A DNA stretch of 64,000 nt from Bacillota bacterium (GCA_023402355.1 JAEXCG010000179.1:27637-91636); one strand, 5' to 3'; shown: positions 17,777 to 27,319, counted from the first letter of the stretch. The notes: generated by a model from the letters alone, not told the origin. Translations and numbers: made by a program.

Positions 17777-18121
17777 TCACTGGTACACGGAAGCCTCGAC
17801 GGCGGCGGATGCCTGCGCACACGGCCCCTGCGTCAACTCCTCGCACAGCGCCGTGGCAACGCGGCTTACCTCTTCGGCCTCCGCGTCGCTCAGTTCACGA
17901 TCGCCGACGGAATCGTCCTGCGGGCGCCTTTGCGCATAGGAAACAAGCTTTCCATCTTCGTCCATGACCAGTTCGAACTGGTCCTTGCCCTACCCGCCCG
18001 TCAGGAGCGTCTGCCCCTTCTCTTCCATCAGGGATCGATACTCCGTTTCCTCCCCGATGGACTTGAGCAGTGCTTTCGCCTGCGCAAGCCGCGCTTCCTG
18101 TTCCTGCGCTTCCTTCACGTG
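17777..18121 (-). pseudogene. same-frame coding-like tail after the M56-2 stop, interrupted by a second TAG; decayed 3' extension or small ORFs
   Basis: The reading frame of the 1781-aa ORF continues past TAG 18122-18124 for 43 codons (HVKEAQEQEARLAQAKALLKSIGEETEYRSLMEEKGQTLLTGG). After TAG 17990-17992 it continues for a further 70 codons (GKDQFELVMDEDGKLVSYAQ...). Confidence 0.3.
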
Positions 18122-21100
18122 CTAGGTCTGGGCGAGCTTCTCCTTCCCGATGCCGCCGCGTTCCTGATAGAGTACAGAGCGGGGCGTCAGGCGGACGTGC
18201 AGCGTATCGCCGCCGCCGAACGCGTCGTCGACGTACACGCGCACCACCTCGCCGCAGTCGTAAACGCGCACGGTATCGGCAACCTCCGCCGTAAGGCCTA
18301 CCGTCGAATACATTTCGCGGGTCTTGTTCACGAAGTCAATGGCGTACGCCTCGACGTCCGAGCGTTCCGCTTCCGTAATCAGGCGCGAGTCGGACGCATC
18401 CTCCAGCACCTCCTGCCGCCAGAAGGCGTCCAGATGCCGCCAGCCGCCGAGAAATCTTCCATACCAGAGGTCCCGCGCGCCCGCTTTGGATTCACCATAA
18501 AACTCGTAGCCATACCGCTCCCCCGCGGAAGGACGGTCGACGACCGTCAGCTGCTCTGCATCGACCTCTTCCGGCAGCCAGCCCGCCGTTTCGATCAGGA
18601 ACGCCCGGGTTTGCTGAACCGCTTCTTCCCGCGTGGGCGCGAAGATCATGTTCATGTAGTGGAGATTGGTTTCATCCTCCGGATAGAACGTCAGGATGCG
18701 TTCTCCGTTCGTCTGCGCGGTCGCGTAATACCTGTTTTTGTCTTTTATCTCGAACCTGTATTTGCGCACCTCGCCCGCGAGCGCCCGCACCTCGGTAAAC
18801 TGAGATCCCATGGGGTTCCAGACGGTAACGCCCACCACGCGACTCAGCAGCTCCTTGACCTCCGGTTCCACGTCGAGTCCGCTGTGTCCCAGCCCCGGCC
18901 GCGTTTCAATCACTTCGTCGTCCGGGTATCCGCCGTACGCATAGGAGAGGATGCGCGCGTCCTCGTCCAGCACGAGCGTGTGCAGCGCCAGCCCGTCCCG
19001 CTCGAACGTCAGCGTCCAGGGCGCGGGCCTGCCAAAGGGCGTTTCATGGCGCAGCAGGCGCGCGCCCTGCGAAAGGGCGAATTGCCGCCCCTCCGCATCC
19101 ACCCAGCGGGCCGTCCAGCCGCCGATCTCCTTCCAGTCCATCTCGCAGGCCGACGACGTCAGGCGTAGGCTCTCAATCGGCAGGCCCAGCGCCGCCAGGG
19201 TTTCCGTCGGAACCTCCGCGTCCGGCCAGTTCACCGTGGCTTCGAGGTCCGGGTCGCTCACCAGCGCCAGCACCGCCGGCGGATTCAGCCTCACGTACGC
19301 GCGGTCGTGCGATTCCCCGTTTTGATAGCTGATCCGGACGCGCGCAATTTCTTCCGCTCCATAGGCGTATATTTGATCCTCTACCTCGACGCCCTGCGCC
19401 TCGCCGTAGTTGTACACGCGCGCTTTTTCGGCCAGTTCGCGCGCCAGCCGCGCGGCCAGCGTCCTCTCCGCCTCCGTGATGGCGCGCTGCTCCGGCGAAT
19501 CCCCGAGCACGTCCACGCGCCAAAAGTCGCTGACATGGCGATGCACGCCACCGTATTCCGCCTGCCACAGGTCGCGCGCGTTCTCGGCGGATTCGCCGTA
19601 AAGCGTCGTGCGCGCGCCTTCCCCGCTGCGGACGTAGGAAAGCACCGGCGGGTTTACATCCCGCTCGCTCCAGCCCGCCTGCTCCATCAGAAAGCTTCGC
19701 GTACGCTCGATCACCTCGCCCGCAGTGGGGTAGACGACGTACGCTTCGAGCTCGCGCGCCCCGTCCGCTTCCGTCATGATTGGGTGCATGCTCAAGACGC
19801 GCGGTGGGTCGGCCTGCACCCTGAAGGCCCAATGCTTTTCCTCGCCCTCGCGCGTGATGGCCAGATACTTGCGCACGCGCCCGAACGCCTCGTACACCTC
19901 GCAGCGATCGTCCGTCCCGCCGATTCCGGCGACGCCGCTGCCGGTGGCCCTAAGCACCAGGCTTTGCCGCTCCGCTTCGCCTTCCGCGTCGTAATACGCA
20001 CCCGCAAGGCGCGATAGCCGAACCGCTTCGGCCCGCTCGGAGGCCTCCGCGAACGAAGCAGTATCCGTCACGCCTTCCACGAACGCCTGCTCCGTGCGCA
20101 GCGCCTCGTCCGGGCGGATGCCCGCGTCGTAGCTGACGATTTCGCCCGCCGCGTCCATGGAAAAGGTCGTGACCGACAGGTCGTTTTGGGTCAGCATGAA
20201 CGTCCAGGGCTCCGTACGCCCATAGGGCGAGGGATATGCCTCCGCGTGCGTTCCGCCCGGCACCGCCGCGTCCGTCAGGAGAATCCCGTCCGCGTCGTGG
20301 ATACGCACGCTCGAAAGCCCGCTTTCAGGCAGGTTCCAGTCGATCACGCAGGCCCCCGGGGCGACGGTGATGCGATCGATGGGAAGCTGCAAAGCGCCCA
20401 GCACGGAGGCCTTGGCTGAGACGGTCTTCACGCGCAGGCTCTGCGCGATCTCGACCTCCTCCGTCCAGACATAATCCTCGCCGTCCACGTTTGCCCACAG
20501 CTCGACGCGCCTGGCGCTATCCTCGTCCGACGGCCCCTTCGCGACCGCGCACTGAATCGCAAACCCGTCTTCGGTCAGCGTTTTTCGCTGCCAGACCGGC
20601 TGCTCGCGCGTCCATCCGACGTCGCGCAAGGCGCCCGACACCGAAGCCTCAAGCGTCAGGCAGGCGTCGTCCCACCAGCACGCGGTCCAGATCAACCCCT
20701 GCGGACGCTCGCCCGAGACGAGCCGCGGCGCGGCAAAGAGCCCTGCCCGGTCAAGCGCGGCGCTAAATCCATCCGCGTCATCCGGGGAAGACGGGCGGTT
20801 CCAGTAAAGCTCGCTCACCTCGCCGTCTGCGTACAGCTCGATGCGCCCGGCAAGGCTGACGCCCGTCCAGTTCCCCCCGATGTAGGTAAAGTCCACCTGA
20901 TGATTTTCCCCCAGCTCTCCTTCCTGTGAGAAGGCCTCGACGGCCTTGCGCCGCATATCCTCCTGCTCCGCATACGCGCTCGCGAGCGCGATGTACGCCG
21001 GGTCCGCCTCGTCCGAAGGGATCAGCGTCCGTTCCCCGGCAAAGGCCGCCTTGTTTTCGCCAAGCGCCCCTCGCGCGTCGGCAACCGTCACGTACCAAGA

Positions 21101-27289: not shown

Positions 27290-27293
27290 GCAT

Positions 27294-27319
27294 AATCGGT
27301 ATACAAATGTATACCGATT
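27294..27319. promoter_or_regulatory. candidate BlaI-type operator (perfect 12-bp-arm palindrome with a TACA-AA-TGTA core)
   Basis: AATCGGTATACA-AA-TGTATACCGATT, 4 nt upstream of the -35 box. The TACA/TGTA inverted repeat is the recognised core of BlaI/MecI operators. Confidence 0.6.

Follow-up and report, generated by a model that had tools for sequence, protein, structure and literature searches.

Positions 17,777 to 27,319 of a 64,000-nucleotide stretch of DNA from a Bacillota bacterium (GCA_023402355.1 JAEXCG010000179.1:27637-91636), hereafter referred to as the window, carry a minus-strand operon for a BlaI-like repressor and two very large membrane proteins of the Peptidase_M56 family, here named M56-A and M56-B. 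With a probability of roughly 0.7, we consider this operon to encode a BlaIR-like switch based on repressor proteolysis, in which two paralogous sensors would respond to an extracellular cue. The argument builds on the preserved signalling cores of all three proteins, on a pair of predicted operators at the promoter of the operon, and on the constraint that is detectable along the extraordinarily long C-terminal parts of the two sensors.

The repressor gene (26804..27187, minus strand) encodes a protein of 127 amino acids (aa) with a winged-helix domain and a C-terminal dimerisation domain. It is followed on the same strand by the genes for M56-A (23497-26763; 1088 aa) and M56-B (18122-23467; 1781 aa). 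The intergenic gaps measure 40 and 29 nt, and a GGAGG-type ribosome-binding site precedes each downstream gene. A single promoter was found in the operon and terminators are present at its two ends only, which makes it very probable that the three genes are co-transcribed. At the downstream end, a hairpin terminator (about 17683..17718, minus strand) combines a 13-bp perfect stem, TTCCGGATAAATC/GATTTATCCGGAA, with a GTGA loop and a trailing TTTCTT; beyond it, and separate from the operon, lies the promoter of pyrG (17623-17652). On the other side, the blaI promoter would be shielded from upstream transcription because a Bmp-type ATP-binding cassette (ABC) transporter operon ends there in an intrinsic terminator (27331..27354, minus strand), a perfect inverted repeat with a 10-bp stem, of which 7 pairs are GC, and a subsequent T-run. 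A scan of the window against Rfam returned zero RNA families.

The repressor matched Penicillinase_R (PF03965) with an E-value of 1.3e-28 and 100.1 bits against a cutoff of 22.6, covering profile positions 1-114 of 115. Alignments with MecI (1sd6/1okr) and BlaI (1sd4) extend from one end of the protein to the other, residues 7-121 pairing with residues 8-122 of MecI. BlaI of Staphylococcus aureus is known to be cut at N101|F102 (PMC9834060). In our alignment SLLVSN|MVEQ of the repressor was positioned over SLVLN|FVEKE of MecI, with Asn-Met at the scissile position, and the aligned SN|MV is a plausible cleavage site. The repressors of relatives have His-Leu and Asn-Leu at the aligned position, the P1′ residue thus remaining hydrophobic.

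Both large proteins matched Peptidase_M56 (PF05569; cutoff 31), with 140.5 bits (8.4e-41) for M56-A and 136.6 bits (1.3e-39) for M56-B. Their transducer cores comprise residues 1-355 of M56-A (25699..26763, minus strand) and residues 1-382 of M56-B (22322..23467, minus strand), the latter delimited by the Peptidase_M56 match, the alignment with M56-A and the transmembrane (TM) segments. The two cores are 53% identical, and HELCH, CCVLFWFHPLVWLGAH, ACDER and ATGMSMNGRRM are shared exactly. When aligned with residues 195-289 of S. aureus BlaR1 (8exp), HELCH was placed over HEYAH and DGEIACDER over DNEVEADR. The gluzincin site would accordingly consist of HELCH and the downstream Glu in EIACDER/EMACDER, aligned with HEYAH and NEVEADR of BlaR1. 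In addition, the sequence GMS|MNGRRM, identical in both proteins, aligned with the autocleavage loop HS|FNGKK of BlaR1, in which the bond cleaved in cis in S. aureus is S283|F284 (PMC9834060). Kyte-Doolittle analysis placed TM segments at residues 9-31, 35-57, 134-152 and 332-350 of M56-A and at residues 9-31, 39-63, 161-179 and 356-378 of M56-B. In M56-A the core would thus be composed of TM1-3, a cytoplasmic gluzincin domain with HELCH and EIACDER, the GMSMNGRRM loop and TM4. The fourth segment directly precedes the long C-terminal part in both proteins and, by homology to BlaR1, the protease loop is expected inside the cell and the C-terminal part outside. The NCBIfam model blaR1_generic was aligned only over positions 3-325 of its 585, representing the transducer half, and scored 72 and 70 bits against a cutoff of 400. 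Judged from these alignments, both M56 cores are intact in their catalytic and cleavage motifs. We also considered a co-variation of Met at P1′ of the repressor site with Met in the autocleavage loop, but dropped it because relatives combine sensors that retain Met with repressors that read H|L or N|L.

The operon is preceded by a sigma-70-type promoter (27261..27289, minus strand) in which TTGACA and TACAAT are separated by a 17-nt spacer, matching the consensus at 11 of 12 positions. Two operators are predicted at this promoter. The first, OP1 (27294..27319), abuts the -35 hexamer and is a perfect 12-2-12 palindrome, AATCGGTATACA-tt-TGTATACCGATT, with a TACAnnTGTA core (TACAttTGTA). The second, OP2 (27263..27277, minus strand; GTAGACACTTGTACA), overlaps the -10 hexamer and differs from OP1 by 2 mismatches. 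TACAnnTGTA is the box of the BlaI/MecI/CopY family. Both the 18-mer of OP1 and the TACAnnTGTA core occur only once in the window, where 0.01 and 0.10 matches, respectively, would be expected by chance. OP1 is identical in a 95%-identical, syntenic relative from ENA metagenomes (L001/L002), which also served as the reference for the substitution rates given below. The OP2-type motif GTAGAC-n3-TGTAC was found after TTGACA upstream of the blaI-like genes beside three of the nearest M56 relatives (L003, L089 and L091), and in every case it is repeated a short way downstream; on this sequence comparison, OP2 is a clade-conserved operator type. Perfect matches to the clade operator consensus were limited to OP1 and OP2 in the window. 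With both sites unique in this sense and located at its promoter, the operon is almost certainly autorepressed.

What sets the two sensors apart is the size of their predicted ectodomains, which span 733 aa in M56-A (residues 356-1088; 23500..25698, minus strand) and 1399 aa in M56-B (residues 383-1781; 18125..22321, minus strand). Both are acidic, with an isoelectric point (pI) of 4.6. Neither PF00905 nor a related transpeptidase or penicillin-binding protein (PBP) domain was detected in them by Pfam and NCBIfam scans. Instead, a super-repeat of ~390 aa is present once in M56-A (residues 358-751; 24511-25692) and twice in M56-B (residues 1020-1427, 19187-20410; residues 1404-1781, 18125-19258), the copies sharing 33-35% identity. 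A degenerate, partial copy was recognised at residues 730-980 of M56-A, and the first part of the M56-B ectodomain (residues 383-1019) is unique. One module type has five occurrences and one more in a relic behind M56-B, of which residues 74-114 were matched by the hidden Markov model of the module. The module ends in both proteins recur with motifs of the '..VDAAGEVL..' type.

Sequence searches assigned these regions to no described family. An exhaustive search of 1.84 billion representative proteins with the super-repeat profile gave six hits: two were the two proteins of the 95-97% identical relative, three were short fragments and the remaining one, a Big_2 repeat protein, was spurious. 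When the 1402-aa ectodomain of M56-B was used in a word-indexed search, only the 97% relative was retrieved, the same type of search with the repeat profile had zero matches, and a sequence-profile search of the PDB with the ectodomains gave no match. When the ectodomains were divided into 41 overlapping segments of 100 aa and compared with Pfam at E<=10, no recurrent family and no PepSY-type match appeared; a lone DUF4901 match (E 0.097) was noise. An AlphaFold2 model of the M56-A ectodomain, with a mean predicted local distance difference test score (pLDDT) of 52, displayed, in its better parts and in its secondary structure, approximately nine successive units, each with one helix followed by a sheet of 3-5 strands. 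Using Foldseek against the PDB, the C-terminal domain of YpeB (5boi), which consists of tandem PepSY domains, ranked first by probability (0.95) and second by E-value (1.1e-3), with a template modelling score of 0.18 to this pLDDT 52 model. The model of residues 383-1030 of M56-B (pLDDT 37) also consisted of helix units with 3-4 strands, and was too poor for a Foldseek search. Since model confidence was low and no PepSY-type Pfam family scored above noise, the module fold is suggested rather than established. The models picture the ectodomains as acidic chains of small alpha+beta modules, for which PepSY-like is a label that we would back at about even odds.

Most of this agrees with an earlier note that had been made from the sequence of the window alone. 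Its three-gene minus-strand order, the sizes of 127, 1088 and 1781 aa and the gaps of 40 and 29 nt with strong ribosome-binding sites are borne out by the gene coordinates, and the co-transcription that it assumed is very probable for the reasons given above. Pfam confirmed its assignment of a BlaI-type repressor and M56/BlaR1-type transducers, and the HELCH, FWFHPLVWL and ACDER motifs on which it had based the BlaR1 transducer core are indeed identical in both proteins, with the fourth TM helix preceding the C-terminal part. The note had further described the ectodomains as repeated modules with no penicillin-binding domain and no nameable fold, in line with the 33-35% identical repeats, the absence of such a domain at threshold in Pfam or NCBIfam, and the lack of a Pfam, NCBIfam or PDB sequence match. 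It had also reported no adjacent beta-lactamase or PBP gene, and the neighbours are the terminated Bmp-type ABC operon on one side and, on the other, the terminator and pyrG with a promoter of its own. The span that it gave, 17777-27319, does contain the three open reading frames (ORFs) as described, but 17777-18121 lies outside the 1781-aa ORF and is a stop-interrupted relic.

Next to these structural features, comparison with the 95%-identical relative provided information on selection. The ratio of nonsynonymous to synonymous substitution rates (dN/dS) was 0.06 for blaI and 0.43 for both M56 cores. Over 2,100 codons of the ectodomains it was 0.23-0.38 in most segments, with ranges of 0.23-0.50 in M56-A and 0.26-0.38 in M56-B. 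This indicates that the ectodomains are under purifying selection and are therefore constrained rather than junk.

The distal ends of the arrays show a different history. Behind the TAG stop codon of M56-B, 345 nt (115 codons; 17777..18121, minus strand) keep the M56-B frame and still encode recognisable ectodomain modules, interrupted by a second in-frame TAG. From this relic it follows that M56-B formerly had a length of about 1,900 aa or more. Read-through or recoding of TAG was considered as the reason for the in-frame tail and rejected: TAG is an ordinary stop codon in this genome and ends other genes, and the additional nonsense codons in the relic differ between the two lineages, the window having TAG where L001 has AAG at one place and CAG where L001 has TAG at another. 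The tail is therefore attributed to decay. In the relative, an insertion of one nucleotide (window position ~24110; L001 9394-9435) divides M56-A into pieces of 898 and 178 aa. The 178-aa piece was recovered on three independent contigs and the intact 1088-aa protein on two others, showing that the distal truncation is polymorphic in nature. Furthermore, synonymous divergence (dS) was ~0.27 (0.23-0.30) from blaI through residue 898 of M56-A, but only ~0.04 (0.03-0.06) in the rest of M56-A and all of M56-B (from ~24100 to 18122). This drop places a recombination breakpoint inside the operon, which is thus a recombination mosaic.

At >=90% identity, the adenylosuccinate synthase encoded in the window falls into one cluster with its counterparts from Beduinella massiliensis and Ca. 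Onthenecus, and on this basis the host is a gut Clostridia bacterium related to Beduinella. None of 80 pyrG neighbourhoods from related genomes contained a BlaI or M56 gene, and in one relative (L011; pyrG 75% identical) the YitT-Bmp-ABC-permease genes run directly into pyrG. We therefore conclude that the 9.5-kb operon is lineage-specific among the genomes sampled; likewise, by sequence the two sensors are lineage-specific paralogues. When M56 relatives were sought in genomes by means of the motifs [TL]HELCHAK and N[IV]CCVLFW, no locus was confirmed. The nearest M56 cores, at 40-44% identity, belong to Clostridia proteins of 515-656 aa whose unannotated ectodomains measure ~180-310 aa.

A blaI-like gene was located upstream of the M56 gene in three of the five nearest-relative contexts. 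In all five inspected contexts, the M56 gene is followed at a distance of 16-31 nt by a gene for a secreted protein of ~570 aa with C-terminal SH3b domains (L003 7994-9775; L006 7606-9327; L089 6670-8358; L090 6606-8327; L091 6625-8337). These SH3b partners share 29-37% identity between distinct contexts, with one near-duplicate pair at 84%, and their N-terminal ~400 aa are unannotated. They are likely to be a co-sensor or an output of the relatives' systems, and we found no description of such a partner in the literature consulted. The two contexts in which no blaI-like gene was present within 5-6 kb of the M56 gene (L006 and L090; P0023 and P0014) have this gene directly behind a spoVAC-spoVAD-spoVAE operon and ahead of genes for sigma factors of the extracytoplasmic function (ECF) type. 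Some members of the nearest M56 clade may accordingly be wired in another way, possibly with a link to sporulation.

Three possible links between the window and these smaller systems were evaluated. The idea that the super-repeat is an amplified version of the ~200-aa ectodomain of the nearest relatives found zero support with phmmer and a probability of only 13% with hhalign, with a shared VQxEPxRIL-like motif, and we regard it as an unproven hint. That the M56-B ectodomain represents a fused SH3b partner was rejected, as no similarity was detected by phmmer or hhalign; nor is the partner detectably homologous to the M56-A ectodomain. The window itself encodes, between dapF and purA, a 540-aa protein (9708-11330, minus strand) that consists almost entirely of SH3_3/SH3_4 repeats and is probably wall-binding. 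As a displaced SH3b partner it was rejected, since the SH3 repeats alone match and do not make it an orthologue.

On the reading that we favour, a dimer of the BlaI-like protein would bind OP1 and OP2 and thereby keep blaI, M56-A and M56-B repressed. Each M56 protein would be a four-TM membrane zinc protease with its gluzincin domain facing the cytoplasm, and its C-terminal part would face outward as a long acidic chain of helix-plus-sheet, probably PepSY-like, modules that arose by repeated internal duplication. An extracellular cue acting on the module chains would be relayed across the membrane, upon which the protease would cut the dimerisation domain of the repressor at the aligned SN|MV, derepressing the operon and any unlinked targets. 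The two sensors, which would form a heterodimer or separate homodimers, probably report two related cues to the one repressor. Within this scheme, cleavage of the repressor by either protease, the nature of the signal, the fold of the modules and the existence of other targets are what we infer.

Several observations weigh against this reading. Confidence in the structural models is low for the M56-A ectodomain (pLDDT 52) and very low for the modelled part of that of M56-B (pLDDT 37), and PepSY-type Pfam families stay at noise. Operator-motif scans made no regulated gene visible in the 64 kb besides the operon itself. The distal ends of the ectodomains are decaying, as seen from the M56-B relic and from the M56-A that is cut to 898 aa in a natural relative, and part of the arrays may therefore be dispensable. 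Lastly, P1′ at the proposed repressor cleavage site is Met here, while it is Phe in staphylococci and Leu in the repressors of relatives.

Some of these points would also fit an alternative in which the ectodomains are not receptors for a ligand but work as a shedding switch or as bait for proteases. Their clipping or loss, whether by host, competitor or own extracellular proteases or through wall damage, would then activate the M56 protease, comparable to site-1 cleavage during regulated intramembrane proteolysis. Sensors would be consumed in the process and the operon would serve to renew them; this would account for its apparent restriction to regulating itself, the sensors being the sole visible regulated products. 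The long, acidic (pI 4.6) and modular arrays and the truncated variants found in nature would suit such a role, and PepSY domains (Pfam PF03413) are classically protease-propeptide or inhibitor modules. The sensor domain of BlaR1 itself is shed, and this modulates signalling (PMC9834060). On the other hand, the PepSY assignment is weak, and purifying selection along the whole arrays would suit a receptor equally well. We consider this alternative unlikely. In another proposal, the ectodomains would be undescribed, fast-evolving modular extracellular sensor arrays on BlaR-type proteases, generated by birth-and-death duplication of PepSY-like units. The paralogues would then form a heterodimeric or dual-input receptor for a surface or proteolytic cue, such as host or competitor proteases or wall integrity, and would mainly regulate their own replacement. 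We mention this proposal as a speculation whose chances are small.

A system in decay that no longer signals is a further possibility. After a lineage-specific acquisition and duplication, the M56 genes would be drifting towards pseudogenes, their C-terminal parts being tolerated junk from runaway duplication. The relic cut off by a stop codon past M56-B, with its independent nonsense mutations in two lineages, the +1 frameshift that splits M56-A in relatives on three contigs, the lack of homologues outside the lineage in the search of 1.84e9 representatives, and the absence of the operon from all 80 related pyrG loci can be read in this way. However, dN/dS values of 0.23-0.38 over 2,100 ectodomain codons and of 0.06 for blaI speak against drift. 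Moreover, both paralogues have the same, intact motifs for catalysis and cleavage, conservation of the operators is perfect, and ORFs of 5.3 kb and 3.3 kb are still open in a genome of 65% GC. Decay of the system as a whole is therefore rather improbable. Very improbable is a CopY-type repressor that senses copper directly, with the M56 proteins unrelated and merely co-transcribed: the operator core equals the 'cop box', a copper-dependent BlaI/BlaR pair exists in PetRP and TIGR02698 (CopY_TcrY) scored 74.5 bits, but this is far under its cutoff of 121.95, the protein has a single Cys, with none in its last 50 residues and no CxCxxxxCxC in its C-terminus (ILKKAKEQL), which excludes membership of the copper-responsive CopY/TcrY subfamily and metal sensing of that type, and genes for a copper ATPase or chaperone were not seen next to the operon, where the immediate neighbours are the ABC operon and pyrG.

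Elsewhere in the window, a probable surface adhesin of 2570 aa is encoded at 51371-59083 (minus strand); it contains a Listeria-Bacteroides repeat and 13 MBG_2 repeats (YGX-type). Its gene is immediately followed, in the same orientation, by those for a response regulator of the LytTR type (50547-51272) and a histidine kinase of the GHKL type (48646-50550). The GC content in this region is 54-58%, below that of the rest of the window. Matches to OP1 with three mismatches occur at 59191-59204 and 59284-59297, in the AT-rich promoter region of this giant surface-protein gene. We considered these two sites as leads to a wider regulon and set them aside, as neither fits the clade consensus and both may be chance matches in AT-rich DNA.

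In the earlier note, the operon was presented as a proteolytic signalling module rewired to a ligand that, in the note's view, would probably be macromolecular or surface-associated. Regarding the novelty that this implied, the note overstated the case. Of roughly 15,000 M56 proteins, only ~6% carry a transpeptidase domain and ~94% of BlaIR systems are of the non-beta-lactam type, the arrangement met most often is an M56 domain with a C-terminal region in which no domain can be identified, and a BlaI-like gene lies within five genes of ~96% of M56 proteins (Kurtz et al. 2026, PMC13492132). It follows from these figures that 'rewired' BlaIR modules are the rule, and the class to which the operon belongs was already known. 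Examples outside beta-lactam sensing include PvmSR and a mycobacterial pair. The logic of repressor proteolysis is also used by the non-beta-lactam system CenIR (PMC13492132) and by the copper-dependent BlaI/BlaR pair PetRP (doi 10.1101/2020.07.31.226407). What is unusual here is the scale of the ectodomains, their duplicated modules, their near-orphan distribution and the tandem arrangement of two sensors with no other linked gene.

BlaIR-type modules form a broad signalling family that is mostly not concerned with beta-lactam sensing, and almost none of its members have a known signal. The locus leaves the working picture of the family unchanged and represents an extreme case within it, with two sensors for one repressor and with ectodomains 3-5 times the size of the classical ~260-aa BlaR1 sensor domain that are still under selection and have next to no counterparts outside a single lineage of gut Clostridia. 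As a natural system, it lends itself to the questions of how new sensor domains originate and expand on a transducer that stays the same, and of whether two M56 sensors can share one repressor.

Compared with the BlaI-BlaR1 and MecI-MecR1 systems of S. aureus and Bacillus licheniformis, the likeness extends over the full length of the repressor, including the position of the cleavage site, and over the M56 core with its HExxH, downstream Glu, autocleavage-loop motif and four TM segments. It also includes a TACA/TGTA operator core overlapping the promoter and the very probable co-transcription of repressor and sensor. In contrast to these systems, the operon has no penicillin-binding sensor domain and no blaZ or mecA, and it encodes two tandem sensors with ectodomains of 733 and 1399 aa instead of ~260 aa. 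With CenIR of Clostridioides difficile and other non-canonical BlaIR pairs it shares a Clostridia BlaI-like repressor, an M56 protein lacking a beta-lactam-binding domain, a C-terminal region without an identifiable domain and the proposed regulated proteolysis of the repressor (PMC13492132). The tail of CenR is ~125 aa long and mostly unstructured, whereas the ectodomains described here, 6-11 times longer, are repetitive and are predicted to fold into modules; and while the regulon of CenIR, ~12 genes including cdr_0474 and cwp6, was defined experimentally, no target beyond the operon itself is visible here in the 64 kb. The modelled ectodomains resemble YpeB and other tandem PepSY proteins (5boi) as chains of small units with one helix on a sheet of 3-5 strands, but model confidence is low and there is no sequence-level match to PepSY-type Pfam families. 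YpeB, moreover, is a germination protein and not a signalling protease. Finally, the nearest M56 relatives belong to the same core clade and use the same GTAGAC-n3-TGTAC operator type after the -35 hexamer. Their ectodomains, in contrast, are short (~180-310 aa) and have no significant similarity to those of M56-A or M56-B, and where their M56 gene is followed by that of the SH3b partner, the operon described here has a second M56 gene in that position.

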